Notes: generated from the sequence alone by a model not told the origin. 64,000 bases of DNA from Rhizaria sp. SCN 62-66 (GCA_001724265.1 MEDY01000042.1:186001-250000); one strand, 5' to 3'; numbered from the stretch's first letter, positions 3,001-61,900 are shown. Numbers and translations are program-made.

Positions 3001-6000
3001 GGGGAACTCTCCAATAGTAAACTTGCCGTCAGCGGGCATTATCAGAGTACTGCCGAGGAATTGCACCCCCAGGGTGCTCGTTGCGCCCGTGAGATCGGGA
3101 ACAAGACTCAGGTACACGACAAGTTTACCGATGATCTCGACATCCTCATTCCCCCGACCAACTTCGCGCCCGTTGGAGTCCATTACAATGGCTTCGACTA
3201 ACAACGTTGTTGCAGGTGCGGCAGGCTGGTCTGGCACAACGTCTGTGCAGATGATGGTGACGTTTGAGGGAACGGGATTACTGCCACTGACGATCTTAAT
3301 GCTGGGCGGCAACCCAGCCGGCCCGGAAATGAGTACAGCACCTTGTGTCAGTGTTGAGCACACAGGCGTGAAGGTAAATCCAGGTGCTTCAATCTCGATG
3401 ACGTCGCCATTAGCGAAACCACGCTCCGGTGTGATCACAATCGTCATGTTGCTGGCCACGCCCACACGAGGGTCATCAAGAGTTGCTGCAACAGTAATGA
3501 TATCGCCTTGCAGACTGTAGGTGGCAGTATCCTGCGTGACAAGAACGCCAAACTTGTTGTGAAGCATCATTGTAAGCTCCAGCGGCGACGGCAGCGAGCG
3601 CGGCGTTTTGATATTACAGGCAACGGCAACTGTTGTTAACGCTGTCACGGTTGTGGTCGGTGCTTGAAACATGATCACCGTGATATCGGAGGTCGACGCA
3701 GCTGTGTCAGCACTCACAGTTGAAGGAGATGCCGAGTTAACACTAATGCTGCAGCCTGTCACTGAATTTGTACTGTCTGTTCCAAACTCAGGTAACGAAA
3801 GGGTGATAATATCGCTGTTGAGTAACACACTACTCAACGTGAAATTGATATTTAGATTTGTAATCGTGGACACAGTCGCTGGTGTGAACGTTGCTGTAAA
3901 AGGAGCGGCACTTACAAGCTGAATTACCCCATAACTAATTGTGTACGTTGACGGATTAGTCATATTAGTCATGAACTCGTGGTCAACCGTAACCGCAACA
4001 TAGTGAGTATAAGTAAAACCACTAGGCGGGTTCAGCGCCAAACTGCACGTGATTGTGAGTGTGCTAGCTTTTGGAACCCGTCTGCCAAACGTAATAGTAG
4101 TCTGTGCGTTATTCGCCGAGGTTGAATTTGTTGACGGACTGCTTGTTGTTGAGACTGTGATGTTATTGATCGCCCCGCCAATCATTGAGCTTGCAGTACA
4201 GGTGTAGCCATTGTCAGCGTAAAGCAGAGGCGACGTCACAACAACTGCGTAGCCGACTTCTATAACCAAAGGCAGATTGTTGATGGAGAATATCATGGTG
4301 CTTGGGCGACCGCTGTCATTACGCACCAGCGGGTTTGCGGTCAACAACAACGTGGGCTTCGACAGGCTTGGCGTTGCTAAGGGTGCGGTGCCGCTCATGT
4401 TGTACATCGCCAGTGTCACATTGGTGGGGGTAGTCACCATGTTTACAGCAACCTGACCCACTGTAATTGTAACAGGACCAATCTTAACAATCGGATTACA
4501 GGTAATAACGAACTGAGGAGTCGGGTTGAGTGTGGCGCTCGTTGTGACTGTCAGATTGAATGTAAACAATTTATCAGTCGGAGTGCTGACGTCAACTGGG
4601 GACATAATCACCAGCGCCGATCCAGTAGGTGCAATTTTCACGGTGCACGTTAGAGGCATATGATTGTTGAACGTGAAGCCCGTAGGCAGAGTCAGCGAGC
4701 CCTGGACGGCAGTCGTCCCGCCAACGGTGGGCATTGACGCGAAAACTGGTTCGATTGTGGCAGTAAAGCCAGTGATTGCACCAACGAAATTATTCTCAAG
4801 TACAACGGTGGCAGTCAGCGGACCGTTTATTGTAGATGGTGTAACCAGCTCTGGAAGAGTTGTTGAGGCAGTGTAACGCATGCTGTTGGTTGCGCGCGCA
4901 GTAATATTTGACGTAACGGATATTATGGGACTGGTGACTGATGGGTTGACGTAATACTCACAAACAATCTTGGTGCTAAGATCGGAAAAGTTGTAAGTTG
5001 TATGCCAACCAGGCGGATCTGGAGAAAGCATCGGCAGAGAGTATGAATAAACACCATTCGAATGCGCGACTAACATAGGGCGATTAGTGGCATCTCGGCC
5101 GACAACGTCTTTGCCGGTGAAAACGCAGGAAAAGGGGCTGCCTTCTTGCATGTTGGCGTAAAGCAGACCAAGCGTCACTGCACCACCAGAGTCCGCAGTA
5201 ACCGTGCTACCGATAAATGTAATCGTGAGCGTGCTGTATGCGCCGATAACGTTGGGCAGTAGCGCAGTGTCCACACGGTAAACACCGGTTTCAGCCAATA
5301 TCGTTGTGTACGAGTCTGAGTTCTAACTAATGGGGAGCGTACCAATGTTGCTGACAGCTGCCTTGACCGTCACAGTGTCGCCCACCGCCGCGGGATTCAT
5401 TGCACACGGGCAGAAAACAGTAATGTCCAACAGCGGATTCTGAGCATTGGAACCGACACCAATGCTCCAGGCTTGTCCTGTTGCAGTGAGAGTGACATCT
5501 TGGCTCACCGCGTAACAACCACATCCAGGCGGGTCCTGACTTAGTACACTAATAGGAGTCGTTGTAAATGCAACCACGTTCCCGTTAGTAAATGGAGTCA
5601 GTGGATCCATGTGCATTGCAATTGTAAGACCAGTGCTCGTGCCGGCAACCTTTGAAGTCGGTGTAACAGCGACTGTGAGCGCAGGGGGCGTGACGGGCGG
5701 CGTGAACGAGGCGGTTTTGGTTGCGACAACAACAGTACGGTAGTCCACGAGCGAAAAAACAGCGTCACTCGGGCTTGGCATGCCAGTCGGCATGACAATG
5801 ACGCATTCAATCTTGTACGAGTGCGAAAGTAAACTGTTTGGCTGCAGAAATGTACCAGGAAGAGGCACCGATATCGTGAGCTTGTTCGCAGGAAAACCCG
5901 ATTCCGAGAAGCTGAACATGGCGTTGGACTGCAGCGCATTGTCGAATGTAAGGTTGCAGTGTAGCGGGTCTGATGAGAGCGTAAAACCGTCCAAAACGAC

Positions 6001-7323
6001 CGTGAGCACGTCCCCAGTGTACACATTTCCGTTGATTTGCCCAGATGCCGAGATGACGGACTGGGCGAGCACGTTAGGTGGGGTAAAGGCAACCACCAAC
6101 GTAACGGGAAGAACAGCGATGGAGCCAAAAAACAAGGATCTTGGACTCATAATATACACGTCGTTAGGATCAATGTAGGAGATTGAGTGATTATACTCAA
6201 CGCTGCTAGTAAGTGCAGGTGGATTGAATACGGTTGCACACGTGACGTTGAGTGTAGTTGACGTTAGGATCTGCTGTGCAGTAAGACCAGAGAGCTTGGT
6301 TGTGATGCTCGTGACTGAGTCGACTCCAATGGCTGTCGTACTGACTGTCGCTGTATACGATGGCATTGAAATACTACCCACCATAGTTGTGATGACGTTG
6401 CAAGTTAGTGAGGCGCCCGGGGCAAAGCCTGGGGCAAAGTAAGGGCTCAAAATCATGATCTTATCAAGATGACTGTAGATGTTAACAAAGCGAGAAGATC
6501 GAGAAAGTGAGCGAATGGAAGCAGACTTAATAATTTAGGCATGATACGTTAATATTAGCATTTTACGAAATCTACAGTGCTTATAAGTTTGCAACAGCTA
6601 ACACTTTGGCTTCATCAAAACAGCTGAGTGTGAATCGTACCTCATTCCTTGGTATTGCGCAAATGGCAAGGTAAACGAAATTGTAGCAGGACGTCCACTT
6701 TCTGTGTTCGAAACAATGCCTGTGGCTGATGCCGAGACTTGAAGCGCGTTGCTCGCTGATGCAAATGTGCCTGTACCAGTGTAAACCAGGCTGTTTTGTG
6801 AAGGAGTAATGCGGTGCGCGGTGAGAGTTGCAGCCACGGTGCTTGTGACGCTGATTGCTGGCACAGTCATGCCCGTCTTGCAATATAAAGAGACAGACAC
6901 ACTACCAGGAGGAGCTGAACTTCTGGTCATTTTAAATGTAGCGTTGATTTTGTTGTTCACGATTGGCTGAAACATGACTGAGGGTGCAATGACACTGAAA
7001 AGACTAGAGCTTGCTGTAATGCCACACAACGTTGTGCTGGTAGAGCTGTTAATATAGCGATTGGTAAACACGGCGGTGAACGTGTAGTCACGACTGCTGC
7101 TTGTAGTGGGCCATCCTGATGTTGAAATGACTACTGCGATTGTGAAGCCCGAGTACGTCGTATTAACGTTGCTCCAAGAGGCACCAGTGACGGTGGTGGA
7201 CTGCTGGATAGTCGACGCCAGCGCAACATCGATCGTTAAGAGCAGAAAAAGCACGAGAGCGGCTACAGTGTACCATTGGGCAGTCGGAAATAAGATGTGT
7301 CGCCTTGGGTTAAGCGAGGACAT
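1..7323 (-). CDS. Giant secreted/cell-surface protein (>2,380 aa, 3'-partial) with tandem Cys-containing, Thr/Ser/Val/Pro-rich beta-sandwich-like modules. Exons 7323-6641 and 6472-<1, with one in-frame TAG at 5325-5323
   Basis: ATG at 7323 followed by a hydrophobic signal (WYTVAALVLFLLLTIDVALA). A GTACGA..CTACAG intron (6640-6473) joins ORF 6598-7323 to ORF 5323-6456 in frame (QGMS|HLDKIMILSP). After the TAG the same frame continues (NSDSYTTILAETGVYRVDT...) and is still open at base 1 (...PTPLTMTFPEGFQ). The C-x(3-5)-NP motif recurs on both sides of the TAG (TCATVFNPP, CPCAMNPA, VCEYYVNPS, TCSLALNPP). Confidence 0.85.
6473..6640 (-). other. Spliceosomal intron (168 nt)
   Basis: GTACGA donor, CTACAG acceptor, AT-rich; removal restores the frame. 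Confidence 0.85.
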
Positions 7324-8887
7324 CTTAAGGCTTTACTCGAAGCATACATAGTGCACGTGGTCAAGTCAAATGATAATTTCGGATACAAAATCAAGATTCG
7401 TGAGATAAAAAGCAAAATAACGTGCTGCAATAGACTTGTTAATTTAAATACCAGTGATGAATTCTGAATTTCTAGGCAACCTTTAAGATAGATCCTTTGG
7501 GTTTGTACAATTGCTTCAGGTCGCGACCCGACTGGGGTCGACGCGAGAACTCAAGCGTAGATAGCGAGTCAAATGATGCAGACAGAGCTTCGCAAATTTA
7601 GGAAATGATTTGATAACTATGTTGAATTGCTATACTGTTATTCACATCAAAACACAGTTGTTATCACGCTCGATACATACTCTTAAAGTAGCGCTTCGAG
7701 GCGTGCCTAAGCGAAGCAAACTTTTTTTGACCCAGTGTTTTTGCTTGTGCCTGTACCTTATCAAGATTTACGAGTTTAGTCCATGTATCAATCGATATTC
7801 ATATACGGTATTCAAATAACCATAACAAAACACATTCATTTTTTTGATGACCTGACGATAAAACTTTATTACCTGCTCGAATTCAGGCGATTTCTTTCGT
7901 CTTTGGGTGTTAAGGTGTACTTGTGGCTGAGAATTCACCCGCATCTGATTCGCAATGGCTCGATCTACTTCGGAATTGATAGCATAAACGTGATTCGATA
8001 ATAAATTATCTATCTGAAACACACATTCTCTTTTTCTGGCGATTCTCTTTTACCGCTCCGTATCAACTGAACGACTTGAAGAACCCCTTCCGCGGACATC
8101 AATAGCTTGAAGTCATCATCGACAAAGTCCACGACAGTTCTACAAGCAAAGCGACATAAGCGCACACACAATACGAGCACGCACGTGCATTTATACACGG
8201 TATCTTATCTCAATGAACGTGTGATATTGTGCTAAGCTGCAGAACCACACTCCCTCAAAGTTAAGCCACCCTTAGACCCATCGCTCTGGCTCAAGACGAA
8301 CTTGATGGCATGTATCTTTGCACATAAGTTTCAAAACAATGTATCAACTTAGACTTCATATATTCGACGCACAATATATATTAGAATTAACTGACAGCGC
8401 TTTCTGTTGAGCATATCTGTTCCAATACTTCACTTTCGTCGTCAAACGGTCCTGCTCACAGTCTCAAACCAAGGCGTTGAGAGAATAAAGGGTTGCGTCG
8501 AACAATTACTATCTCGACCTGAAACAATAAATAAACGCTGTTTATTGTATATCAAACATGACACAGCGTAAGATCAATTAAATATTTCTCTGCAACACAT
8601 GGATCTATCTTAATCCAACCGACGAACAGCAGCTCTATCTGCTCGCATCACCTATCAAAACGACGTCAAATAACAAATGAAGCATAAATATAGGTTGGAA
8701 AGCAAATGGCAACACATAGTAGTCAGGACATTCATGCAGTTCAGCGCAGATATAGCTCATATACATGAACACTGCGACGCTAACACAGCTCGTCGCCCAA
8801 CCATACAGTAGTGTCTCAGTGTCCACTCTCCAACTTCGAGCCTCCGCACCGCACCAGCATTCAGCGCTAGCGCCAGGCGTGGCTTGC

Positions 8888-14214: not shown

Positions 14215-17200
14215 ATGGCCCACATCCCTCTGTCGGCCATTACGGCCGACCTCTCCGGTGCGTTCACCTCCGCGTCCGCAGCCGGCTGGCCCTCAGTGCC
14301 TGCGCTGTCAGCGGCAACTGCGACTGTGGCCCACTCAGCTGCAGCTGCCACTGCTGCTTCTGCTGCCGCAGGTGCCACCGGCTCGCAGACCTCTATGCTG
14401 CTACACGGCCCATCTTTAGCGTCTCTTGCACCCGCCTCTGCGCTCACCGCGCTGTCGTCCGCGAGTACGCTGTTAAGCGCGCCGCACTCTGAGCTTCAGG
14501 CGACCGTACAGCACACACACGCCTACCGCGGCCGCCTCCGCTGCCAGTCACATTCGCACAACCCCTCGAACAGCAGCGACAACAGCGACAGCGCTGCGCC
14601 GGCGCCGGCTTTTTTCCGCGAGTTCTGCTACACTTGCGGCGCGCGCCTGCTGCTTTGTTTGGACTGCGCCGAGCTCTGCCACCGCGGCCACGCGCTTGGC
14701 CCGACCATCAGTGCCGCCCACGCGCGGTCCCCATCGGCGGCAACGGCGCCGCAGTGCATGTGCGGACACGCCGGCGCGCCGTGCCTTGCCGCAACGCCTG
14801 CGGGCACGTTCCCGCCGCCACCGTCCCCGCCCGCGGACGCCGCCGCCGCCGACGCACTCGCTGCCGCCGCCGCCTCCTCCGCCACGCTATCGCTCGGCGC
14901 GGCGACCCGCGAGCACGCATCGCTGCTTCACGCGCTCACAGTGCCGGGCGACCTCGCTACCGCGGCGGCCGGGGTCGCCGGTGCGGGCGCGAGCGGTACG
15001 GCTGCGGGCGGCGCGATGCTCGTGCCCGCGGCCAGTGCGGCGGCGCTTGCGATCGGATGTGCTCAGTACAACAACAACGCGGGGAGCAACGCTGCAGTCG
15101 CCGCGGCTGCTGAAACGACAAGCGCGGGCGCGGACGCACTGTCGCAGATTGCTTCGGTGTTCGCTCCCACGTCGTCAATGTCATCGGCGACTATGACGGG
15201 AACGCATGGCGGCTTGACTTCGGGGTCACGGACTCTCTGGCTGCCGTCGCCTCATATCCAAGACTCTGACAACAGCAATAGTAGCAATACGAATGCGAGT
15301 GCGCCCTCTGAACTTGCGCAGAGAATTAGCAGCAACAGCGACCAGCACAGCGCTTTCTATCACTCGATCCATAAGGCGGCGCTGGCGGATTACAGCCGGT
15401 TTTACCCGCATTTGGCGCCTGCTCATGGCCTCTCAAGCTCTGCCTCTGGCTCTGTACCTGACACGACGGACGCAGCCGACACGACCGCAACGGCACCAAT
15501 CTCTGTCACAAACGGCTCTAACAATGCCAGCAGCAGTCTCATTGGCAACAGCATTGACGGCGGGCCAAACCCAGCCACAGCCGCCGCCGTCGCCGCCGCC
15601 GTCGCCGCCAGCGCCACCGAGACCGGCGGCCCCCACACGCACGGCCGGTCCTCCGCCCCCGCTGCGCCGGCGACCCTCGTTGCTTCTCTGGCCGCCGTGA
15701 CGCCGACACTGTGCCCGCCGCTGTCGTCGCTGCCACACGCGCCCGCCGTTTCGGCGTTGCGCGCGCTGGCTGACGCTGAGGGCTACGCGGCTGCAGTACG
15801 TGCGGGCGCGTTTAACCTGGTGTGCTTAGCGCACCATATGATCGAGAAGCAACGTGCGAGCGCTATTGACAGCACGATCAACACTAATAATAGTGGCAAT
15901 GTCACTGATGCTGCGGCGGCAGGTCCTGCTAGCCCTGCTGTGACCGCTGTTGCCACGGCGATGGCTGCGGTCGAGCGTAGCTTGCACAGCAACATCAGCA
16001 CTGCGAATGGCAGTGCGACTGCGAGTGCCGCCAAGGGTGACGTGTGGCTGCCTCTCTTGGCTGCTGTCAGGGAGTCTTTCGCTGAGAAGGATAAAACTGT
16101 GTCTCACAGTCAGGCCGGGCTTTCACTTGCGCTGCGCACACGTGTCGTCACTGCATGCGAGGCTGCGCTGAGCGGTAAAGTCAAGCCGCCTGCCAAGCAG
16201 CAAGATGCTATAATTGCCACTGCGCTGGCCGTTGCATTCTCTCCCATTACTCTCAACATCACAGCTAACAGTGGTTATCAGCAAGCAACAGCGATTCCTG
16301 TTGAGAGCAGCAATATCATCATTGCGAATGCCAAGGGAGGTCCTCGCACTGCGACTGCGCTTGCACCTACAGCAGTTGTGACTGGTCAGCTCTCTCTTCC
16401 AGGCTCCTTGTCCCCGGCTGCAACTGCCTCCGGCGTCAACTTTGTATACGAAAACACGGCTGCATACACCGCCCAGGTGCACTCGAGCAACAGTTCTGCC
16501 TCTGCCTTGTCGCCTGCGAAAAACAGTAGCCTCAACGCGTCTCGCAACTCGACCACCTCAAAGCCCCCCACACTTGGTCCTCACGGCGCGAAGCCTGCCA
16601 CCGCAATGACAACGACCGAGGCCGCCAGTAGCATCACGGCGCTTAAGCTTCGAGTGTGCGTGTTGGTGATCGCTCATCTTTCTGCAGTCTCTGGCGGATT
16701 ATCTTTCGTTCCTCAAATCCAGCGCACGGTGACTAATTTAACCACTAAGCATACCTTCACAGCGTTCCAACGCGTCTTTTGTGGTCACCGCCGGAGCACA
16801 GCTAACAATGATAACTCATTGCTTCACCTAGACTTGTCGACGTTGCGCACCACTGCTCTGTACGCGCAATCCCCCGTCTCTCAGTATCTCAACAGCTCTC
16901 CGATTACCACCAACCTCGGCGGCTATGGACAGACTCGGTTTGCGACTATCACGCGCGTCACCAATAGCGATAACGAGCACCGGTCACTGCTTGCGCTGTC
17001 ACAACGCGCTCGCGTCTCTGCGGTTGTCCAGGCGCGTGCCGCCGTTGCCGCGAGTGCACGCTGGGAGTGGTACAACCACCGCACCGAGACCTGGGTCTCC
17101 TACACACACGCACTGTCGCGCGCCATTGAGACTGCGTTCACCGCTGATCTGCCGTGCGCTACCTTCCACAGTGCACCGCCGCCTCAGCAGCAGCTCTCTG

Positions 17201-20200
17201 GCTCTGCGCCGACTGTGTCGCTGTCTCTCGCAGTGCAACAGTCGCTCGCGGCCGCGTCCCTCTCAGCACACAGCTCTGGGTCTATGACCGGGCTTCTGTC
17301 ACCGACCTCCGCTGCCGTGGTCGCGGCGGCCGCGGCGGCTGTGACCGCTGGCGGGGCCGGCGGCGCCCCCAACGGCCGTCGCGGCGGCGTCGTCGGCACG
17401 GCGGCTGTCACGCTTGACGGGGGCGCGTTTCCCGGCGGGTCTGCGTACAATGACATCAACAGCGGCAGTAACGCAAACACGAGCTTTGCGGTGGCTGAGT
17501 ATGCTAGCAACAGCAACAGCGCGGATAGGTCTGCTGCCGCGGCGATCGCTGCGCAACAGAGCGAGTTGTCCGTGGCGACTATGCGAGCTGAGGCCGCGAT
17601 CGCCGCCCTTGCTACCCTGGCCTTCTCGTCGCCTGCTCCTGGCGCTATCAACGATAACAACGATGCTCTCCCCGGTTTGGAGGCCGACGATGGCGACGAC
17701 GGCGCATTTGCCAATCTCAATGCACTCGCGAGGAGCAGCGGTGTGAGCGGCGACGGCATCGGTGTTGACGACGACGACGCTGTTGCACGCGCGCTGTCTG
17801 CGCTGGTCGCGCCGTTGCGCAGTCTCGGCGCGGGCCTGGCCAGCACCGCCGCGACCGCTGCGGAGGTGCTCGCACGTGAGCGCCAGCGCGAGCAGGACTT
17901 GGAGCTTGAGCTCGCGCTGAGCCCTGACAACATCCTCGCCAGCGCCAATAACAACGGCGGGAGCAGCTTTGACCACAGTCGCTTCGGTGTCGCTGCTAGT
18001 AACGGTGGCCAGCGCAGGTTTGTCGTCAGCTCAGCCGCAAGTGTCTCGACCAAGAAGGACGCATTGTCGACTGTGACCGGTGGCGACTTCGTTACCATCT
18101 GTTTCCGTCGCATGGTTGAGACCCACCGCCCTGCTCCCTCTGTGAAGCCCGCACACTCATACACTGGCGCCGACGACGGCAACAACAACGACGCCAGCGC
18201 TCTCGAGACTCTCACGTCCCTCGCGACTGCGAGCAGCGCCCGCGGCGTGCCCGTTCGCGTGCGCCGCGTTGCCTGCGCGCCGCTACACGCGACCGCAGGC
18301 CACGCTCTCTCAGCGCCGTCAACCGGCCTCGCCGCGGCCGCCGGCATCGTGCTCGAGACTGAGGAGGAAGAAGACGGCGGCGTCGACCCGGGGGCCGCGG
18401 GGGCGGCCGCTGCGGTTGCGCGGGCGGCGGCGGCGCGCGCGCGCACGCAGGTCTCCGTCGCCAACGTGGCCGCGTCGGCCGTGGCTGCTGCTGCGGCAGC
18501 GACGGTTGCGAGGCTGAGCCGCGATGGCAATCGCATGAGTGACGTTAGCGACTACGACGACGATGACGACAACGACGATGGGGCTGACGAAGGCGACGCT
18601 GGTGATGATGACAACGGCGACAGCGCTAGTGATCGCGACCTGAGCAGCGCCGAGAGCAGCAATAGTGGCGGTGAAGACAACGGCGCGTTGTATAACAGCG
18701 ACAGTGACGACGGTGACAATGCCGACTTTTTGCGCAGCAACGGAAGCAGCAACACTCGTATTGACGTGAACAACGATGCCGAGCTGCTGGCGCTGCCTGC
18801 TTTCAGTCCACCGAATCGTTTTGCCACTGAAAACAACGTCATCAGCAGTAATGCAGCTGCCAATGCGACTCTTTCGGCTGCCGGTCCTGTGGTGAACCTC
18901 CATCGAAACAATGACAACAGCTCCAACGTCAGCGCAAACGCAACCGTGATCAGCACGACTGCAGCTGTGATTGCAGTTGGGCCTGAACTAATGACACCGC
19001 CGGCGAATGCCCCTCACAACGACGAACGTATGCGCCGTCGACGTCGCCGCCACCGCCGCCGCGTCAACCGCCGCCGCGCCGCCCGCGCGACTGCCCGCGC
19101 CTACCAGCTCGCTGCTGCCCGCGCCGCTCTTGCCCTCTCCGTTACCGGAGTCAATAACGGCAGCCAGACGCCTCAGGCCCCGCCTCTGCGCGTGTGCGCT
19201 GATGCCGAGACTGGGTGTGTCTACGTCCTCGGTGCCACTGTCGGTCTCGTGCGATTAGCGCCTCTCGCCGTGACAGTGAGTGCAGCGGAGTCTGCGACCG
19301 CTGTGGCGGCGACGATTGCCAAGCACGGACTTGCTGGTGTCGCTGCGGGCGCAGTTCTGGCGCAGCGGCTTGACTTTGCTGTTCACGCGGAAGGTTATAT
19401 CACTCTGATCTCGAACAGCAACAACTCGAAGACGTTGCTCCTGCGGTCTCCGCTGTTGCATGACGGCGTTCTGCTTGCGATCGATCCTGTCACACTGCTG
19501 CCGCTGCCGCACAAGGTCATTCTCTCGACAGCTCGTGGTGGCTCTTGTACTTACGACAGCGCAACTCAGTTTCCATTTGCGACGATAGCTGCTGCAATGT
19601 CGACGGTGATCCCGTCAACTCTCTCTCTTGTGCGCGCTCATAACGCCGCGGTAACCGCGCAAAGGGCGACTCATTCGAAGCGTGGTAACAGCAGTGATGC
19701 AGCGCTCAAGGCTGGATACTTTAGTGATGACTCGCATGTTCTCTCAGTCACGACAACGGCTGCTGCTGCTGCCGCAGATTGTGCTCCTGCCCTCTCACAT
19801 TACGGCTGTAAGCTACAACAAAGCGACCACGAGAGCGGCGACTCTCAGTGGTTGAGCTCACTCGCTCCTCCGCCGTTCTCGCTGGAAGTTTTCCGTCCCC
19901 ACGAAAACACTTTGGATGAGGCAGCAAGCCTCCCCACTGCTCGCGGGGTCAACGGCGCAGGCAGTGCAGTGAATGCACCTCAGCAGCTCCCACCGACGCC
20001 CGCTCTTGGCTCTTGGCTGCCGCTGCATCTATCAACCACTGCGCTTTCAGCGGTCAGCTTGCTCTTCACCGGCGGGTTTTCACCCCAGTTCGCTCTTGCG
20101 AACACTGCTGCCGCCGCTAGCTTTGACGAAGACAACGCTGATCAATGCGCCAAGCCACTTCCTGGTGTCGCGATCGCGCTCTCAAGTGACAACAGTGCGT

Positions 20201-23200
20201 TCCTGATGTTTGAGCAAGACTCTGGTGTCTTCCTCCGCGTGCGCCGCAGTGCGCTGCCTGTTCAAGACTGCGATGACAGCAGCGTTCTCTGCTCTCATGG
20301 TGCGGTTTCGCATGAGGCCCGCGGCTTCAGTGACAAGGCGGACTACAAAAACGGTACCAAGAGCGGTAAAGCGGGAGACGCGTGGAATCCTCACACGGGT
20401 CTATGCTTTGACGCGACTGCGACGAACGCTAAGGCAGCTGCCCCTCGCAGCACGAGCGTCAAGTCTAAGAATAACGAGAACGAGTGGCTCTCGCTGCGTG
20501 TGCGCGTTGTTCCCGCTGTCGCCGCAACGCTTCGCTGCCTGCCTCTGTTCACTGACACCACAGACGGCTCTCTCATTGCTCTCACTCGCAATCCCATCAG
20601 TAGCGATGCGAGTAGCGGTGATGTCACTCTGCGTCGCTTTGACACGAGCACACTGTTTTCCGATGCCAGCGATATCACAATCTCAGCTCCTGTACTCGCG
20701 CATAATGTGAGTTTGTTCACGCTTCTTGGCGCTCGCGTTTGCCCTGCACCTGTCCAGACTGCAGTCTCGATCAGCAGCTCCGGCAAGTCTGCTGCGACTG
20801 GCGGCATCCGTGCGTCTGCCCGTGGCTTTCTCTCTGCGCTCAAGGGCATGGGCTTCACGAAGCGCGCAATCACGCGTGCACTGCGTGTCGGTGGTGCTGC
20901 TGTTGCGGAAGACGTTGCGGCCGCCGTGGAGTGGCTTGTCCGCTACCCTGAGGGCGCGCCGCTGTCGGACTGCAGCAGCGGTGAAGACGCTGATGACGAT
21001 GGAAGTGACAACGATCCTTATGAGGAAGGCAGCGAATGCGATCACACCCGCGTAACGTACGGCGACAGTGATGACACTGAGTTCAAGCAAGAGATGCCGC
21101 TCGCAGACGGTGTTCTTGATGGCTCGTACAACAGCGGTCATACCAGCAATAGCGACGGCGATGACAAGAGCGATAACGTCCGCAGCCACATGCCTTACTG
21201 GCGTGGTGGTGCTGGTTCGCTTAACCAGAGTCAGGACAACAACGAGCACGGTCTCTTTAGCGGTTCTCTCTCTTCCATCTCGAACCCTGTCTCTGCCGAC
21301 GCGGATGCTGTTGTTAATATCAGCCTGACTGGTGACGACATAGACGGTGTGTTTGCCCGCGCGTCTGAGTTTGCGAGCAACTCCGCCAGCATCATCCGTC
21401 GTGGCGGCGGCGCCAGCAATACCGCGTCAGTCTCGCCGGCGGCGATGGCCGCTGTGGTCGGCACCGAGCCGTTTTTGCTGGATCCCCACATCTGTGAGCC
21501 TCAGTGTCACGACCAGCACTGCGCCGACTGGACGCTGCCTGCCCTGCAACCGCCTCTAGTTTCCAACTCGTATACCGGGGTAACACCGTGGACTGCGCTG
21601 GGATCGCTGCTGCTCTCAGCCCCCGCTGCTTCTGACGCAGTAGCTGCTGGCGCTAGTCTTGAAGCTGCCGCAGCGCACGCCTACGCAGCAGTGACCGCGC
21701 CTCGTGCCAGTTTGCGGCTGTGGGAGCGCGTCTCTGTTGCTGTTGCACGCGAACGGCCCGAGTTGGCGGTCAATTTGCAGACTAAGGTTCCGCTTGCGAC
21801 AGCTCGGGCTGAGTCATTGACGCGTGCTGTGAGGGACCAGGATCCGACTTTGATCTCGGCCGCGGTGCTGTCAGCGTGTGTGAAAGCGCACCCGCTAGCG
21901 GCGCGCGCACACAAGCACTGTTCTAGTGACAAGGGCAGCAGCAGTAGTCTTGCGAGTGCAAATACTAACGGCGATGAAAGTGATCCGGATGAGCTGTATC
22001 TGACTGCCTTGCAGTCTAAGTACGCATCTCCGCGTCTTGCGAATAATAATGATACGAGTGCTCAGTGGCACCCGCTGCGTCTCGCCTCGCTGCGCGCGTT
22101 TACATCAAACAACACTGATAGCTCTTTAGATCTGAACGCGGGCATGCTTGTTTGCTGTGCCTGCGGTGTTTTGCAAAGCGACAACGAGCAACTGGTGTTT
22201 GAGTGTCTTGACTGTGCTGATTATGAGTCTCACCGCCGCGTTGTACTTTGCCTTGACTGTCACCGTAATGGTGCTTTTAGTGCAGCTGCTCACACCTCTG
22301 CTCACCGTATTGCTCCGCTCCGCTGCTACACCAACGATATGTGCACGGAAAGCAATTGTGACTGTGGTCTTGCTTCTGCTGCAACGAGCAAGACTACATC
22401 TAGCTCGTTGCATTATGATGACATCGTTATTCTTGCTAACAACGATCTTTCCGATCTGTCTAATGGGGCTACTACGGTTCAGGGTACCAACGTCACGGGG
22501 AACAATGGGTTTGATCTGACTGTTCAAGGCAATGCGTTGCCTCAGTCAGCGCGCCTCTTACGCACACCCCGCGTCTCGAACTCAACTCCGCTAGCGAGCT
22601 CGAGCGTTGTCGCAGCCCCTGGCATGGTCAACCGGAATGCATCGGTGCTATCAAGCGAGTCAGGGCTAGCGCGTGCAACTCTGGTGACGAGTACGTCGAA
22701 CCTCGCACTGGATAGCAAAAGTAAGGTCAAGAAGGCATCGGTGGGTGTTGATGATGAGAGTAAGTGTGCATTGACTGATGTTGCAACTGCTCATAGCTCT
22801 TGCACTACTCCCGCAGAAGCCCCGAATGCCAGCAAGTACAAGTATGAAGCGTACATTAACATGCATGCGTACTCGATCAGCTTCAACTCGGAGACACAGT
22901 CACTGTTGTTACTCTCTCCGAACGGCAACCTCACGATGCCCGCTGTTGCGACGCCCGCAGCCGCTGCGGCTGCTGTTACTGGCACGCTTGGCCTCGCCGC
23001 CGGTGTCGGCAGCAGCGCCAACACGGGCAACAGCGACGCCGACGCCGCTTCTCGCGCCGCTGTCGCCGCTTCAGCTTCAGCCACGGCCACAACTCCCGGC
23101 CGTTTCGCTATTACTGCTGCGCTCTCGCGTGACGCGTATCTTTCGCCGTCGACATCCGCGACTACTTCGGGCAACCGTGATCACAGCGTGTGTCATGCGT

Positions 23201-51744: not shown

Positions 51745-54700
51745 ATGACGTCCTTTTCCCCCATTGTGCCGCCTCTCAACACGTGTTTAGTGCTTCTTAT
51801 TGGCCCCCTCGTACGTAAAGCTACATTTCTCTCTGTTTAATCTTCTATATCAGCTTCAAATCCACTGCCATAGAGACCAATTCTAATATCCTCTTAACCC
51901 TTGCATCACGCTCACATGTCTCTTGCTCCTGCACTTCTCTATCAACCCATTCTGCCATAACACAGCTTGGTGGCTTTACGACCGGTCTATGCGGCTTCGG
52001 CGGCGCGACCATCTTTCAGCTCGTATGGCGCCTGTGCGTGGAGATGATGGGCGTCGACATGGGTGACGGCGACGTCGCTGAGGGCAACCGCCGCTTACTC
52101 GTAGTGTCCGCAGTCCTCACGACAGCACAGTACCTCTCCGTCGCCGTTGCCGCGCTGCGCAAGCCCATCAAACAGTATCACATGCGGTACTTCATTACCC
52201 TGACGCCCGGATTCGCGCTCTTCGTCTGGCTCGGTTCTTATTTAGCGACCGAGCTCAAGTCCGAGGCGTCTACCCACCTGTTCGGCTGCATCCTCGCCGG
52301 CATCGGCTTCTGGGCCATCATCACCACGCATGTCATCGCCACCAAGGACGACGACATGAACCTCCGCGTGTCCACCATCAAGGCCGTGTGCGCAAAGGCT
52401 GGGTATCACACCGAGTTCGAGCACATCAACACCGGCGCGGCGCGGCCCCCTCAGCTCACACAGCAATACGCGGGCGCTGGCGCCGGCGCTGGCGACTCCG
52501 CTAACGGCGCTGATGGTATTGTTGACGGCTTGACTTACGAGGCTGGCGGCGGCTTGACTTCGATCAAGGCACTCAAGTACGAGCCGCCGAGACTGGCGAC
52601 TGAGTCTGACGAGAGGCGTCACTCTGTCTCGCTCTTGCCGTCAGTTCAATCGTACTCATACACGAGTGCGAACAACCAGAACGACAACAACAACAACAAC
52701 AACAACAACAGTAGCAGTCTCTCGATCATCAATAGTGTCAGCGCGAAAAGTGCTGCTGCTGACGCTGCGGCGAGCAGCTCAGCCAGCGGAGTGACCGTGG
52801 GCAACGTCGGCGCAAGTATTGGCGTCGCCGCTGGCGCCGGTGTCCGCATCATCCCCCCTCACGCGGGCGCTGCGGGAAATGTAAGTGCTCCTTACAATGG
52901 CAGTGTCGGAAGCGTGCAGTCGTCGCCGCAGTCGTCGACGCTGGGACAGATGGTGAACAATAATAATGTCAACCACAGCTCGGAGACCCTTGATGAGACG
53001 TCGAGTGTCGCGACTGACGCGTTCACGCCCCACTTAGTCCCCGGTGTAAGTGTAAGTTCCGCGAACGATGCAAGTACCCCGCCCACAGCTTCGGTCGCCA
53101 TGCCTGGGCGCACTCTCTTCACCAATAACAAAGCGACCGCAGCCGCAAACGCTGCTGATGCCAACAGCAACACTGGTGCGGACACTGTAGCGAACATGGC
53201 TCATAACGCTCCCGGCAGTCTCAGCCGCAATAACAACGGCAACGGGAGTCCCGGCGGGTTGCTGCCGGGGGCTGCCACTGCGAACGGCGTCGGCAGCTTT
53301 GGCGGCTCTGGCGCTGGCGTTGGCGTTGGCTCACGGCCCCGGTCGATTTCGGCTGATATCCTTGTCATGCCCAATAGTATCACCAATACCAATATCAATA
53401 ACAGCAACACTGCTAACGCCGCTGATGCTGTAACTGGTGGCGCTGACAAGGCCGGCGACAGCACTGCACAGCATCATAGCTCTGGTGCCAAGGCCAAGGA
53501 TGCTGCGACTGCGGCTGGCAAGCCTGCAGCTGCGGCAACAAACAATAACAGCACGACAGTTGACAGTACTACGGTAACTTCAGTCGGCAGCGGTGCATTG
53601 AGCCACTATGACGCAACCGCTTTGCGTCTTGGTTTCACTTCCAAGAGTAGAAACAACAGCAGCAACGCTCTCGGCGCCGCGGGCAACAGCAACCATAGTG
53701 GTCTTGGACGGGGCCTCGGCGCCGGCCGCAAGCGCTCGTTCGTGCTCATGCGCGCGCCCACCAGTTCTGGGTCTAACAACGCCAATAACCACACCGTCGA
53801 TGTGGGTGGAAGCCTACCGCGCTCACAGTCGCTGCTCTCGGCGTCTAAGGGGGGCGCGTTTAGGACTAAGGGGGACAGTCGCAGTGTGAGTAGGGTTGCT
53901 GACCACTTAGACGGTGGAAGCACACAATTGCATGGCGATGGGAGCGCGGGCAATGCTGGTGTGCGTGTCGGCTTTCTCTCAGTCAAGACAGTGCAGACTC
54001 GTGGAAACAGCAACAACACCGTCACCAGCAGGGCGTCTAAGGGCAACGGCGAGCCCCTTAAGCAAGCGTTGCTACATGACACTGATGACCGCGAGTACTC
54101 GACCATCCACGAGACCACCAACACCCTCGACGACAATGACGGCGACGGTGATGGTGACGATTGCGACGACGAGAATGCTGGCGAGGACGATGGCGACGGC
54201 GTTGTGGACCGCAGTAACGTGCTCGTTGCGTCTTTCGCGCCCGCCGCCCTCAACGCTCACGCGGCCGCCTACGCCGCTTTCACAGCATCGCTCTCTGCCA
54301 ACCACAACTCCAGCAGTGCCAACCCAGCGAACCTTAGCAGCAGCAGCGGCGGCGTGCTGATCGACGCCCCGGGCTCGCCCGACTGCCGCAGCGACACGGC
54401 CGGCAGCGTGTTCAAGTTCGAGTACAACCCCTACTAGGACGAGGACAACGCGGCCGAGCTCGGCCACTCCGGCCCGCTCGGATTCGCGACGCCCCATGCG
54501 CGCGACGCCGTCGCCCATAACAGTGACAAGTGGGGGTACAACGCCGTCGGCTGGCGGCGCTACCGCTGGGCCAAGGGGTTCAAGTCCGTCTGCAAGAGCA
54601 AGCCAGCTGCCGTTACCGGTGTGATCATGGGCTGCGTCGGCGGCTTCCTCAACGGCGCGCTCGGCATCGGCAACTCGTCACTGGTGGCGTACTTTAGCGC

Positions 54701-55115
54701 GCTGCAGCTGACGGGCACGGCGATGCGTGACACGTTCGCGCTCATCTACACCGCGGCCGCGCCCAGTCTGTTCGGCGCACGCGTGTACTACGGCATGGTC
54801 AAGACGGACGAGTGGCTTATCTACACAATGGGGCTGCCGATGAACTACGTGGGCACGTTTGTTGGGCTGTACTTGCACAGCTTTGTGCATAACAAGGTCA
54901 CGCTGTCGTTTGTGCAGGCTGTCGTGCTCATCGGGTCGATTTTGCTCACGAAGCCATGGGTGTCAGGGACTTTCCACAGCGTGATGCTCGGCGTGTACAT
55001 CGCTGTCGTGCTCATCTCGGTCGGAATCGCGGTGTGGAGGGTGCGCAGGGCGAACAAGATCCGCCGGGAAGTGCAGGAAGAGTGCGAGATGATGCTACAA
55101 GAGCTCGGGGGTTGA
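51745..55115 (+). CDS. TauE/SafE (TSUP)-family transporter, about 1,071 aa, with a very large low-complexity central loop and one in-frame TAG at 54435-54437. Exons 51745-51810 and 51966-55115
   Basis: N-half motif LLIGPL|LGGFTTGLCGFGGATIF plus further TM helices. C-half motif GVIMGCVGGFLNGALGIGNSSLVAY plus about 4 TM helices lies in the same frame after the TAG (54621-54438 = 183 nt, no other stop). Terminal TGA. Confidence 0.85.
51811..51965 (+). other. Spliceosomal intron (155 nt)
   Basis: GTACGT..ACACAG, pyrimidine-rich, phase 0. Confidence 0.88.
52686..52709 (+). repeat. (AAC)8 microsatellite encoding poly-Asn
   Basis: Directly visible in the sequence. Confidence 0.9.
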
Positions 55116-55943
55116 GTAAAACATCGCTGCTGCAAGCAAGCACATATCACTCGGGTCCTCGAAGACCGCTGCAACAGTAACCGCAGCGATCGCTTGTCGA
55201 AGATGCCGTGCATGTTTTTTGAGATAATTATTATTTAGTTACGCTTTTTACTTGTTACTGTGCCTTTTAACTAGTGTCAACATTTGCGACGAATGTCTTT
55301 TGTGCTGTATGGAGACGATTGTAGCTCCTCGTGCCACTTACTCTTCCGCCACTGGTCTGAGATGCTGATGTTGAGAGGGATGTTGTCTTGCGATGTCGTC
55401 ATACCATCTTGAATACAGCGTTTTGTTTTATTTATTCAAATCTTTGTGGCTTCTCTGACGCATGCATATCATTCTATCGTCTTGTGGAAGCAAACTGACT
55501 GTGGGTAGCCCACAGTCATGTCAGGTTGGAATTCATGTTATGGAAATCTCGAATATCTCGACTATACAATGTTTATTAAGTTCGCATTGAATATAAACTG
55601 TCGAATCTATAATTGAAAACCTATGACATTTGATATTATATGCATAGGGTCTTGTCCGACCTCGATATGAATGTGTCTTTGTGATCGAGGCGCTCACGGA
55701 GTTGGAATCAACCATTATTTCGACGAAATCAAGGATTTACTGTCAAATCCAAAGACACGCGAAAAATGAAATGCAGAATTACTTACTTTCAATACGTTCA
55801 CATGTTCTTACCAAAGCCACTTTGATATAATCTCTTTTCCTACGTAGAACACCGAGTGGTTAGAAAGATACGCTTCAAGTCGTTCGCAGCAGCGCTCTCT
55901 ATCGATATCTGCCGCGCGCTGCCCGCGCCTTCTTCGACGCAAA

Positions 55944-58900
55944 ATGTCTCGGGCTGACCATGGACGCGACATTAATGCGCGCGTGCTGGTGCTGCCGATT
56001 GACTTTGGCTCAGGCATCGTCGAGCTTCACTTCTTGCGCGCCACCGACGGTGTCTGGTACGTTACCTCAGTGGCACCCACTTGAAGAACTCACTTTACAG
56101 CGCATACTTTGATCATTTTTTAGCCTTTATCACGTGCTAACTCGCGTTGTTATGCGTTGTTCATTCGCTTTTGTAGGTGTTTGACGGTCAGGGAGCTCGA
56201 CTCACTGTTGATCCGTGCTGAGATTAACATCAACGACAGCATGCTTGCAGGCGACGCCGCAAGTTACCAGCATCAGTATCGCCCGCGCCCTATCTCGATG
56301 ACTCCCGGCCGTGCGCAACAGATGCAACAGCGCCGCTCATCAGCCACCGTGGCTGAGGACAACAAGAAGGACGCCGCTGCTAGGGCCTATGTGCGGCAGA
56401 CTTGCATCGAGCTCGGACTCGCCTCCTGCGCAGTACGTTAACGTTGGCGAAATCGATTAAAAACGCATGGATTATATGCTCGCAAAAATAATTTCAATTA
56501 GTTTTCTACGATATTTATTGCTTACCTAACTCTTGATTGCTCTATCTCATGTTGCGCAGGCTGATAACGACGAGATGTCGCTGCTGCGCCGCGTCGGCGC
56601 AGTCGGGGCCCGCGCACCTAAGGCCACTCTTATCCCCATCGACCACGGCCTCTACCTCCTGCGAGTGTTCGGCCTTGCTGCGGCCGCGCTGCGCATTGAG
56701 GCTGCTCTGCAGCATCTCGTCTACGTGCGTCCCCGTCACATGAACGCCGGCTCGCAGCAGGCTCTCGTGTCGCTGGTGACCGACAACACGATGTTAGCAG
56801 GCGTAGATGCTACCGCTGGCAATATCACAAACCCTACCGGTGCTAGCAGCGGCGCAAGCATTGGCAGCGTGTCGCAGCTACTCTCTTTTGATGACGACGA
56901 TGCTGGGGTTGCCGATGACTGTAGCAGCGCAGGCAACGTAAGTGCCAGTGACAATATCTATCACAACGACAGTGACCACAACTTTGCGAGTGCATTTGGA
57001 TCTGGAGGCGGGTATAACACAACAGCGGGCGCCAACGCTAATGTGCGGTCACGATTAAACGCCTCATTCTCAATGTACAACTCCACACTGTTTTCTCCGC
57101 GTGGCTCGGGTCCGAGCGCAGCCGCAACTAACAACAACTCAACTAACAGTAGTCCTTCAGGGCTTGGTCACAGTCTTGGGGCAGCTCGCAGTAACAACAG
57201 TATGAACGTGAACATTAACAGCGCCGCAAATAAGGACGCGAGTATGCTTTACCGCGCAAGTACACCCACTAACGCCGGCGTTTATGCTGTGCCGAACACC
57301 CAAAACGTGAATGCGATCGCAAACTCGAACAGCAGTGCGAGTGCAGCTGTTGTAGGGGGCACTGTTAGTGTTGCTGGCCCAGGTCAGGCACGCGCGCGCG
57401 GCCGCAAGCGAGGCGGTAGGAGGCCAAGCGCAGCAGTCCCTTACGGTCACTTTCACGGTATCGGTGGCTTGGTAGGTGCTGAGGCCGCTGCGGCTGCAGC
57501 AGAGGTAAACGCTTTGTATATTCAAGAGCAGCGCTATACTCTTGATATATACATCTACGATGGCGTCACCGATGCAACCGCGATGCTCTCAACTTTTCTT
57601 ACTCTGGCAAGGCAGGCGAACGCACGCGCAGTGCCGATGTCTCCTGCAAAGGAGTACGCAAGTGGCAGCGCAACTGCGCACAGCGTCACGGAGCTGAAGC
57701 TGGCAATGGGTAGTTGGATCAAGCCAGGTTTGCGGTTCGACGCAACCTCAAGCGCTCCAAACGCTGACACCGCTTCTAACAGCAGCGGCACAAGTGCAAG
57801 CAGCAGTGACGCAGCTGCAAACAGCGCAGGCGGCTGTGCCACTCGTTTCGACGCATCGTTAAGCGTTTTGAATCAGCTTTGCAATCAAGCCACTGCAAGC
57901 ACCAACAGCAGCAACTTAGGTACCGGCGTGGGCCCGAGTATCAGCGCGCGCCCTGGCAATTTCACGATGCCAGCGGAACCGCAAGCGCAGTCAACATCCC
58001 TGGCGGTAACAACATCTGCTTCACAACAACAGCCACAGTCATGTGGTGTAATGCCAAGGCTGCCTGATTTCTCGATGAGCTTTGAGTCGCGCATTGAACC
58101 GTCACTTGGCGATATCGCCTTTGGTGGTTCTTGTCCCAGCCGTCGCTTGGAACAGCATGCTGTGTGCACCCATATGTACTCGAGCAACAATAACACCGAC
58201 GCCAGTGGCTTTACTCAAGCACCGCCGGTGAAGCTTGAGCCCATCCGGGTTACTCCAGTAATCCCGCTGCCGCACGCGCGTAAAGCGGCTTCGCGCACGG
58301 GCCAAACACAGAAGGGCAAGCTATCGCTAGAGAACGAAAAGGTTTTTAACGAGTGGTACAGTACGCACGTGCGAGATCAGGACCACAGCACGATCTATAA
58401 CTCAAATTCCTACATGGCACCTCAGCAATACGGGCAATCCGCACCAACGCATCATTCACAGCACCAATGGCTTGGCAACGCTTATTACAACAACGGCCAG
58501 AATGTATATGCCAACGCAGGCATGTCCCATCTCTCAGCGCCAACGTTGCCACCAATTGACCCACACTTAGTATTGCAATTTGTGCCACAGCAGGAGTCGC
58601 AGCCGCGTCTTGCGTTGCAGTCGCCACAGTCAGAGCTCCCAGCTCCTTTGCGTCAGTACCAGCTTTCACCGCCTCAACATCAGCAGCAGAGTCAGGCCCC
58701 GCTTTTGACTCAAAATGACGGGTACATCAACAGCCACAACCAAAGTGCAGGCCTAAACGTAATGCTTCAGAGGCAGCAACCATTTCAGCTACAGCATGGA
58801 TTTGAGACTCAGCCCGTGTTGTCAGACTATACCGAGTTAGAGCCGTACGCCAACGGTTTGCTGCCTTACAAACAGGTCCAACAGCAACAGTTTAGACGCG

Positions 58901-61900
58901 AGCAGCAACCGCGCGAGCAAGAAGTATCTTGTCAGCAGCAGCGCCAGCAAGAACACCAACACCGACTACAGTCAGAATCTAAGTATTGTGAAGATGAGTA
59001 TAAGCAGCTTCGCGGCGATGAAATCTACGTTAACTCGTATACCTGCGCCGACAGCAGCGTCCCACTTGGCGATAGATTTAGTAACAGTTACACAAAGGAA
59101 AGCTCGACGTCATCGAACGGTACAAATTCGGCATTGCCAACACCACGTGTCAAGCGCCCTTGCAATTCAAGCACTAGTGAGCACTCGGAAAACATGCCGA
59201 CTTTTAACGGTGACAACTTTATTGGCTTGCATGCGCCTGCAAACGAAGTTCAGCCACGTGGCAATGGGTATACTTCTTTGCCGATACTAGCAGGCGCGCT
59301 TCTGCCGCCTGCTGATCGAACATGTGAATACAGCAGTGAAGCTGTACGCAGCACGTATGTTGGAATAAACGCGAATGAGGGCCAGGGTAGCCAGAGCCCT
59401 GGTCCTCTTAGCAACATGTATGACAACAGCAACAGCACCACAGCTGTCGCGCTATCATCATCTCTGGCTACTCCAACTAATGCGCGGAATGACACGAATT
59501 ACTCCAGTATGAACAACAATGATAGTTATCACGTGCAAGACATCCGCTCAAGCATTGCAACACCAACCGTTGATTTGCACGTGACAAACTTGTTTGTCAC
59601 ACCAGAAAAGACGTCGTCTTCGGGGAGGCCGCCTGGTGCTCCGGTGCGAAATGCGCCTTACTACGCGGTGACTTCAAACACATTGGACTCCTCACCTGCC
59701 TTCGCGTTCTTGTCAACTCCAGCTTCACACGTTGAGCTGAACGCTCTCTAGACCGCACTTAATGCTCATGTAAGCACACAGTTACAGCGTGGCCACGTAT
59801 TGTCACTAAATGAGTCTAGCGCGGAGAGTTGTATGCACAAAAACGGCGACGATGAGCACAAACAACGTTTTGATCAAGATGCTGCTCACAGTACTGGCAC
59901 GATGCCCTTTGCAATGGCTAGTGCAAGCGGTTGCCTGAAGAGTAGCAAACTGAATCAACAGCTCTACCACCGATCTAGCCATGAAGTGGCTGCGTCGTCT
60001 TTATCGATGGCATTAAGTGGCACAAAATGTATGAGCTCGCGCGATGTAACTGCCGTCGCCACGTCTCTAGCAACTGCGCCCGTGGTTTGTGCCACTGTCC
60101 AGTATAGTCAGCAAGAGCAAGTTCGAACGCGCAGTGCGTCTGCTCAAGACAATACTTTGGCTGCTGCTGATACACCCCCGCTGAATATCGTTTGCAATCG
60201 CTCCAACTCGATTGCCCCTAGCCACTCGCGCATTTCAACCTCAACAGTTGCGAACCCCATGTCCGACAACGGTTCTGTTTTGCACGCAAACGCCAACACC
60301 AATGCCCGTGCACACAGGCATAATCACATCCGGAGTCACAGCCCAGTTCCCGTAAACGTGAGTAGTCACACTGGAGTGACAGGCCACTCAGACACGCATC
60401 GACACCCAACCGCGCACACGCAAGGTCACGGCAACGCTCGCAGTCACGCACACTCTCATCATCAGTCTTATAACCATCAGCGTCACGGTAACACACAAGC
60501 TCATTCACATCCGCACAGTGGTAGCAACGCTGTGCATGGACGAAGATCTGGTGATGGCGATAGCGGCGACGGAAGTAGTGCTTCGGTGGTGACTGTACAC
60601 AAGCATCGAGTGATCGTGGGCCCTTGCGCTGTCGCCGACATTCCGTGCCGCTACGCCGGCTGTCTTGACCCGCGCGGTCCATTGCATCCACACGCCGCGG
60701 CACTCACACATCTGAGTAGTACAGATGCGACTGAGCGTGAACACATGCTCAACCGCTTGCCAAGGCCAGTCGAACTTAGAATCAGTGCATCACCATGGAA
60801 GACGCCAATACTCGCGCCGCACCCGCAAACGCTTCTCCGTTACGTGCCGATCCACCCGTACTTCACAGTGGCAACTGTTGCATATCTAGCAGGTGTTCCG
60901 CAGTCTGCATCTTGCCTTCCGTTGTTGCAAGCTAACGAAGACGCGTACGCAGCAGCGCGTTTGAAACAACAACAACAAGAGCAACTGCTTCTTAGTGAGC
61001 AACAGCAGCAACAACTTGAGCGCGAACGCGAACAGCAAGGGCAGCGGCGTGAGCTATTACTTGAGCAGCAACAGCAACATCAACAACAACTGTCAGGACC
61101 GCATCCCATCACGGCACATCTGCTCGTTGATAAGGGCACTGAGGTTGCAGTCCTCGGAAATGACTTTAGCGGCGCAATCAGCACAAGTGCAAGCGCAACT
61201 AGTGCGACTAGCTTAGGTACAGCCAGCGGGACTGGCGGCAGAGTTGCGATGCCAGACTCTAGTCAGCGTCGTCGCGGTCAAGCTGCGGCAGGCAGTCACG
61301 GACCTAGCGCGTTATCCCTCGGCCCAACAGCGTTGCGCCAACGCAACAACGGAGACAGCAGAGTCCGCCTTGGTGAAGTCATGACCGATCAAGATGCTAA
61401 GGAGGATTTGTACCACGACGACGAAAAGCACGGCGAAAGCAGGTCGGGTGACGGGTTTGGAGCCGCGACTCACAGCGCGGCCCCTGGCACTGGTAGGCAC
61501 TATGTGAACGCTCACGCCAATCGTGCCCAGCGCGACACAACGGTGCCCGCGTCTGCGGTAGAGCTAGGTCTCGCAACAACAACTGTCAGCGCAGGGGTCC
61601 ACGCCGAGTCTGCAACAAGCACGATGGATGCAAGCAGCCCCGATAGCTACGCTGATGTTGACGTGAAAAACTGCAACAGTAACTGCATTACTCGTGCAGA
61701 TGGCGGCGAAAACGATGATTTGGACAGCGAGAGTGATGACGACGATGTGTGGTATCGCGGCGGCTACCGTGCTGCAACTGCCGCTGCAATTGCAGGTTCC
61801 GCAGAGAGCTCGAGGCTTGCGAGATCAAGGGACACAAGGTCATCCAGGGGGTCAGAGTGGTTGTCCCCCGTTGCAAGCGCACTAAGCCCGGAACGCGCGC

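Follow-up and report, generated by a model that had tools for sequence, protein, structure and literature searches.

Nuclear genetic codes in which UAG is reassigned and UAA is still a stop are known from only few lineages (PMC5304391, PMC11687900). In the rhizarian 'exLh' (Sainouroidea), UAG encodes leucine and UAA and UGA are stops; 384 in-frame UAGs were reported in 71 genes, many of them at conserved leucine columns, UAG is rarer in highly expressed genes, and eRF1 keeps its conserved motifs without obvious deviation, its one unusual substitution being at a position of lower conservation (PMC5304391). Iotanema spirale (Fornicata), an anaerobic metamonad studied through its transcriptome, reads UAG as glutamine (PMC5304391). 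In phyllopharyngean ciliates, which prefer UAA as stop, sense UAG is widespread and means leucine or glutamine; UAG-only reassignment arose several times, and suppressor tRNA genes have been found (PMC11687900). An oligohymenophorean ciliate uses UAA and UAG for different amino acids (PMC10553269), and Blastocrithidia nonstop, with UAR read as glutamate and UGA as tryptophan, has reassigned all three stops and carries in-frame stops in abundance (PMC12153298). The present analysis concerns a 64-kb stretch of eukaryotic DNA (MEDY01000042.1:186001-250000, deposited under Rhizaria sp. SCN 62-66; the whole stretch is called the window below), in which three genes each carry a single in-frame TAG, and in which UAG is probably decoded as a rare sense codon or efficiently suppressed.

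Compared with exLh, the locus is similar in that a non-ciliate eukaryote has UAG as its only in-frame stop codon, and different in that there are 3 UAGs in 11 genes, none of them at a conserved column and at a far lower frequency (PMC5304391). Unlike the leucine of exLh, the residues aligned with one of the TAGs (site 2, below) are E, S, N, S and D in a weak alignment, and the nearest named relatives of the PP5 phosphatase encoded in the window are at most 55% identical. As described for Iotanema, UAG would be uncoupled from UAA in a nuclear code. The GC content of 0.45-0.69, a gene of 9,913 codons and GTACG introns of 120-168 nucleotides (nt) are judged to be unlike ciliate genomes. Glutamate for UAG would be shared with B. 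nonstop if the hint at site 2 is right, but TAA and TGA are never in frame here. Its introns are cis-spliced, and the coding strand changes often from one gene to the next. Both features are unlike trypanosomatids.

UAG-only codes are informative about the way in which a cell survives the capture of a stop codon. A search of the available literature yielded no described wastewater eukaryote with reassigned UAG, and the present case, if true, would be a further independent instance of UAG-only recoding, notable for a very low use of the codon. It would then offer a direct view of early reassignment and could show which genes are the first to tolerate the codon, in what way it is divided between eRF1 and a suppressor tRNA, and whether reassignment takes the ambiguous-intermediate or the codon-disappearance route.

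Three TAGs inside single coding units

Each TAG lies within a single functional coding unit, the TAGs are fixed across samples, and the UAG of site 3 is contained in a mature, spliced mRNA. All three in-frame TAGs of the original prediction were found at the positions given for sites 1-3 in Table 1. The standard code breaks the open reading frame (ORF) at every one of them, and reading TAG as X merges the pieces into ORFs of 2152 (open at the window edge), 1023 and 2267 amino acids (aa), each with exactly one TAG. Counted from stop to stop, 403 codons are open before and 1774 after the TAG of site 1, 872 and 225 at site 2, and 1073 and 1208 at site 3, and a codon-usage score, trained on five of the window's other genes, favours one and the same frame before and after each TAG; these counts and this score confirm the long open frames of unchanged coding character that had been described past the TAGs. 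At about 4% stops per codon, base-composition arithmetic gives a probability of about e^-48 for the 1,208 open codons after site 3, which cannot be chance, and the architecture of the mRNA fits one long ORF. A six-frame scan returned eight single stops with at least 150 open codons on both flanks, of which five (3 TGA, 2 TAG) are antisense to the GC-rich, 9,913-codon ORF of a HECT ligase and are due to chance, and the remaining three are sites 1-3.

Across the 11 gene models, the 17,846 in-frame codons include 3 TAG (about 0.17 per 1000 codons), 0 TAA and 0 TGA, so the claim that no gene needs an internal TAA or TGA is borne out. The nine terminators that were checked are four TAA and five TGA, with no TAG (Table 1). 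Ten such ends had been proposed; the tenth, in a gene at the window edge, is not firmly TAA, since one choice of frame gives TGA and another TAA. The proposed lack of TAG ends also needs a comment, in that an ORF at 6598-7323 on the minus strand seemingly ends in TAG because this TAG lies in the inferred 168-nt intron of gene 1, which has both TAG and TAA in frame with the exon and is similar in length, GC content and ends to the two RNA-supported introns.

Gene 2 encodes an N-terminal half, a low-complexity linker of about 700 residues and, after the TAG of site 2, a C-terminal half. Residues 22-97 correspond to positions 40-113 of the Pfam TauE profile at 24.8 bits, which is under the curated cut-off of 32.6 bits. 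With the 225 residues behind the TAG, an exhaustive HMMER search found 40 proteins at E <= 0.001, and relatives match this half with E values of 1e-26 to 2e-21 in the stretch that Pfam calls TauE (profile positions about 121-236). Many of these relatives are 400-650 residues long and match at their C-terminal end, and two TauE stretches in one protein were seen in 7 of the 10 relatives scanned with Pfam, the C-terminal one being again at profile positions about 121-236. The relatives are, like gene 2, single polypeptides with an N half, a long low-complexity linker and a C half. The TAG of site 2 stands at the end of the linker, right behind a motif common to the relatives P0005 and P0006, and on these alignments stopping there would delete half of the TauE fold. 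The column of the TAG, a linker position beside the conserved motif, holds E in P0005 (48% identical in the C-half) and S, N, S and D in the others, and the local alignment by BLAST stops short of it. Glutamate as the meaning of UAG is thus weakly hinted at by this single column, and the view that the amino acid cannot be fixed from this locus is upheld. In run X8, a polyA library, a contig of 246 nt (54863-55108) lies within the part of gene 2 behind the TAG and gives weak support. At the other end of the gene, a first transmembrane helix (51819-52043) is encoded in frame upstream of the first ATG at 52044, so that a further 5' exon is expected.

Gene 1, which has no match to a Pfam family, consists of a signal-peptide-like N-terminal exon (7323-6641) and a large exon that runs from 6472 to the window edge. 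Its residues 314-449 and 1033-1168 align with each other at 29% identity over 140 aa (E 2e-12), and the alignment crosses the TAG, extending 64 residues before and 71 residues after it; by this internal comparison the TAG of site 1 lies inside a repeat module.

Gene 3 had been labelled 'SKI-like', a label that was not confirmed. Pfam gives no family for it. Contigs of run X5 span its transcript (55846-63491) in pieces and extend the gene by two small 5' exons. A 5' untranslated region (UTR) of about 100 nt precedes the ATG at 55945, the exons are 55945-56056, 56177-56432 and 56560-63378, and the 3' end lies 113 nt past the TGA. One X5 contig skips both introns (GT..AG), through which the DNA contigs of runs X2 and X4 continue, and the depth of X5 is 15-23 over gene 3 versus 0-4 over the neighbouring genes. 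X5 was taken as RNA on account of its two spliced joints and of coverage that follows the outline of the gene, and its contigs behave as complementary DNA (cDNA). Gaps in the coverage of X5 and X8 were not counted as absence. The TAG of site 3 is carried by an X5 contig of 4,686 nt (58806-63491) with 0 differences and 0 gaps, and the UAG is kept in the spliced mRNA, unspliced and unedited at the resolution of contigs.

For recurrence across samples, contigs of four runs were placed on 44001-64000, a range outside which site 1 lies. The TAG of site 3 is unchanged in contigs of X2 (58522-62213), X4 (59640-60710) and X5 (58806-63491), which come from three studies, and that of site 2 is unchanged in an X4 DNA contig (52901-56686; 3,786 nt, 0 differences). 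A metagenome scan in which the TAG-distal TauE C-half served as query brought up no relative but only a contig of 3,786 nt from JGI (L001); L001 is identical to 52901-56686 of the window, TAG included, and as its span equals that of the X4 contig it is probably the same data and was not counted as independent. In all, the TAGs recur in assemblies of several samples and studies from 2015 to 2025. X2 differs from the window by about 1 base per 2 kb and is a slightly different strain. The TAGs are not assembly or base-call errors, and a heterozygous allele is unlikely, with some room left for it because contigs hide minor variants.

The interruption by TAG is also visible in public protein collections. 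The TauE C-half is present there as a protein of 162 aa (P0004), and a piece of gene 1 as proteins of 347 and 377 aa (P0170 and P0171), which stem from 3 and 4 contigs, respectively, of ENA/Logan assemblies and are ORFs ending exactly at the TAG of site 1. A search for closer relatives at sites 1 and 2 among candidates of near length (to 497 or 702 aa) returned only such truncated ORFs of this organism. Gene callers that use the standard code split or truncate the genes of this organism, and the entries in public collections already show them divided at the TAGs by callers working with the standard or the bacterial code. A contig of 397 kb that bears these genes is likewise present in public collections.

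Probable decoding of UAG and competing explanations

Decoding of UAG as a rare sense codon, or its efficient suppression, is the explanation that the analysis holds to be probable. The organism would translate UAG, with UAA and UGA as working stops; an amino acid might be inserted at UAG by a tRNA whose anticodon is CUA, or by a near-cognate tRNA that competes strongly, in combination with poor recognition of UAG by eRF1. That ribosomes pass the UAGs, by which agent, and how far this extends through the genome, we infer from the sequence; within the window, no tRNA gene (ARAGORN) and no eRF1 gene were found. A young or inefficiently decoded sense codon would be expected to be as rare as UAG is here (3 in 17,846) and to be confined to weakly biased, fast-evolving genes. 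The GC content at third codon positions (GC3) is 0.53-0.70 in five of the six segments of the TAG carriers and 0.85 in the short part of gene 2 behind the TAG; five conserved genes have 0.72-0.87 and the HECT gene 0.65. The three carriers have weak codon bias and are fast-evolving or of low complexity, a pattern that agrees equally with a young sense codon of low efficiency and with lesions that are tolerated.

A more specific scenario can be put forward tentatively, with rather less confidence than sense decoding as such. An unsampled, deep-branching wastewater eukaryote might be in a phase where its capture of UAG is still early or inefficient, in which UAG has gone from the terminators, is decoded (perhaps as glutamate) and has come back at about 0.2 per 1000 codons. 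The UAGs would then all be in weakly expressed, fast-evolving genes, and the organism could conceivably be an intermediate between the standard and a reassigned code outside the ciliates.

Several points weigh against sense decoding. Under the standard code, the lack of TAG among 9-10 terminators is only slightly improbable, with an estimated probability of about 0.03-0.13 if TAG ends 20-30% of genes. Among one-step nonsense mutations in these genes, 54-57% lead to TAG, and the probability that three of three are TAG is 0.16-0.18; because of this share, the TAG-only pattern is weak evidence alone, and the original argument from the exclusivity of TAG is statistically weak. The 9,913 codons of the HECT gene are free of UAG, as are six conserved genes (PP5, PRP38, RGS, PDXK, Fdx and MAPR), none of the three TAGs stands in a strongly conserved alignment column, and the in-frame UAGs number only three, in 3 of 11 genes. 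The automatic label of X5 is 'probably DNA', the RNA evidence bridges a TAG at site 3 only, and contigs drop rare variants, which leaves room for low-level editing or minor alleles. The core of the original prediction, that UAG is read through and UAA and UGA terminate, is nevertheless strengthened by the single coding units, the independent samples and the site 3 cDNA, even though its argument from exclusivity is not. The RNA behaviour it had called for (UAG retained, unspliced and unedited) was found in the cDNA contig of site 3, the one site bridged by RNA.

Among the competing explanations, the one that survives best supposes a standard code in which the TAGs arose recently by nonsense mutation and became fixed in a clonal lineage of wide distribution, with the downstream parts being remnants of young pseudogenes or dispensable tails. 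All three TAGs are one step from the common codons GAG, CAG and TCG (22.8, 23.1 and 21.5 per 1000), TAG is the likeliest nonsense product at the share given above, the glutamate of the closest relative in the site 2 column fits a change from GAG to TAG, and the affected genes are fast-evolving or of low complexity with weak codon bias, the conserved genes having no TAG. However, this requires fresh truncation of 3 of the 11 genes within 64 kb, yet the 3,207 codons downstream (1774 + 225 + 1208) contain no second lesion. The mutations would have to be younger than about 0.1-0.2% divergence, at which the whole 53 kb of coding DNA would be expected to gain only about 2 stops even if selection were absent (both figures are estimates). 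Truncation would drop half of a membrane-transporter fold at site 2 and cut a repeat module at site 1, the gene 3 mRNA is the most covered X5 transcript of the region despite what would be a 3' UTR of 3.7 kb, and samples dated 2015 to 2025 all along contain the TAGs. Decay is disfavoured because of the proportion of genes affected, the lack of a second lesion, this persistence and the well-covered gene 3 mRNA, and the explanation is considered unlikely.

Slightly less likely still is a standard code in which UAG is leaky, either in particular genes or in general, with near-cognate tRNAs effecting a programmed readthrough, and still ends most genes. The low frequency of UAG, with one per affected gene, would agree with this, and the 9-10 terminators seen are too few to exclude TAG stops elsewhere. 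Known leaky stop contexts favour C at +4. The contexts found here (TAG-AAC, TAG-GAC and TAG-ACC) have no motif in common, and their +4 base is a purine in each case (A, G and A), as had been stated before and was confirmed at all three TAGs, and the 120 nt downstream form no stable structure (z -0.84, 0.16 and 0.69 versus shuffles). The purine at +4 and the lack of downstream structure argue against context-driven leakiness. Moreover, the readthrough product of site 2 is the sole form with a complete fold, and so readthrough at this site would have to be efficient; such efficient readthrough is hard to tell from reassignment.

It is most improbable that the UAGs never reach the ribosome, whether because short in-frame introns of an unusual kind take them out or because RNA editing alters them (e.g., A-to-I, UAG to UGG). 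Introns of this organism start with GTACG, as seen in two RNA-supported introns and two read from the sequence (gene 1 and PP5), and three measured introns have lengths of 120-168 nt and a GC content of 0.35-0.43. Site 1 has a comparable GTACGC 17 nt upstream of the TAG, with in-frame AG acceptors at 27, 165 and 273 nt, but the resulting introns would be too short (27 nt versus 120-168 nt) or exon-like in GC content (0.52 versus 0.35-0.43) and would remove a motif common to the repeat copy. A fitting 5' site is found in none of the 40 in-frame GT..AG candidates at site 2. Seven of 77 candidates at site 3 have one and are contradicted by the cDNA contig, in which the TAG is unspliced and unchanged within an otherwise spliced transcript. 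Going by base composition and splice signals (Table 1), intron-like sequence seems to be absent around the TAGs. The sign of A-to-I editing, G for the A of TAG, was not seen in the cDNA contig of site 3, where minority editing would be hidden, and RNA records bridge a TAG at this site only. Editing, cryptic introns and base-call errors, which the original prediction had named as alternatives, are therefore weakened by the site 3 cDNA and the independent samples.

Gene content of the window and its source organism

The window has a GC content of 0.45-0.69 per 2 kb and about 11 eukaryotic genes on alternating strands (Table 1). No Rfam family matched within its 64 kb.

Table 1. Features of the 64-kb window; 'fitting' refers to in-frame GT..AG intron candidates around a TAG that have a fitting 5' splice site, and GC to the 30-100 nt on either side of the TAG or to the intron
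Feature	Coordinates	Strand	Terminator	Remarks
In-frame TAG, site 1	5323..5325	-		codon 378, large exon of gene 1; GC 0.46-0.54; fitting 11/44
In-frame TAG, site 2	54435..54437	+		codon 798 of 1023-codon ORF, gene 2; GC 0.61-0.70; fitting 0/40
In-frame TAG, site 3	59749..59751	+		codon 1059 of 2267-codon ORF, gene 3; GC 0.49-0.50; fitting 7/77
Gene 1, giant Ser/Thr-rich repeat protein	1..7323	-		3' end beyond left window edge
Inferred intron, gene 1	6473..6640	-		168 nt, GTACGA...CTACAG, GC 0.37; read from sequence
Adrenodoxin-type ferredoxin (Fdx)			TAA	
PP5 phosphatase			TAA	
Cytochrome-b5/MAPR protein			TAA	
HECT ligase, control gene	14215..43956	+	TGA	9,913 codons; 0 in-frame TAG, TAA or TGA
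Pyridoxal-kinase-like gene (PDXK)			TGA	
RGS protein			TGA	
PRP38			TAA	
Gene 2, TauE/TSUP-type membrane protein	51819..55115	+	TGA	
Gene 3, low-complexity protein, transcript	55846..63491	+	TGA (63376-63378)	X5 contigs
Gene 3 intron 1	56057..56176	+		120 nt, GTACGT...CTAAC...TAG, GC 0.43; RNA-supported, short side 210 nt
Gene 3 intron 2	56433..56559	+		127 nt, GTACGT...CTAAC...CAG, GC 0.35; RNA-supported, short side 255 nt
Edge gene			TGA or TAA	depending on frame chosen

The organism is best explained as an uncultured, intron-poor, GC-rich microbial eukaryote of wastewater and bioreactor metagenomes. The part of the window at 53001-63000 is present in wastewater, bioreactor and activated-sludge metagenome runs; 10 of the 13 listed runs, belonging to 7 studies, contain part of it, and 6 runs contain at least half of its words. 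Runs with a small share (X7-X13) were left out of the habitat evidence. Metagenomic relatives of PP5 are 83% (P0051) and 65% identical, and the identity to animals, green algae, a chlorarachniophyte and oomycetes is about 50-55%. Scans of genome contigs with P0008 and P0053 gave no match, nor did scans of viral contigs with the TauE C-half and PP5, and a literature search for the splice signals GTACGT and CTAAC yielded no lineage clue.

Introns are few, AT-rich and near the 5' ends of genes, and their signals are uniform (GTACG, a CTAAC-like branch site and YAG), as is typical of intron-poor eukaryotes. The PP5 gene has a putative intron at about 10506-10717, judged from the sequence and the relative P0051. 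Behind the TAA terminators of two genes, TAG follows in frame, as the fourth codon after the PP5 stop (11991-12005) and as the seventh after the ferredoxin stop (8867-8887, minus strand); both are inconsequential if TAA is a real stop. The ORF of the HECT ligase is uninterrupted over its whole length, with the Pfam HECT match (E 4.5e-37) within the final 984 residues and an extreme content of Ala/Ser low-complexity runs.

A relative of 90-95% identity is represented by contigs of X2 and X8 at 44532-44821, 47603-47720 and 49845-49902, with differences that are often three bases apart (third codon positions) in PDXK, RGS and PRP38. Contig depth reaches 139-387 in X2 and 33-50 in X8 at 50671-51337, where PRP38 has a tail rich in Arg, Asp and Ser, and at 62677-63343, where gene 3 has a run rich in Asp. 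Other organisms with low-complexity repeats of a similar kind, and not copy number, are the most likely source of this excess.

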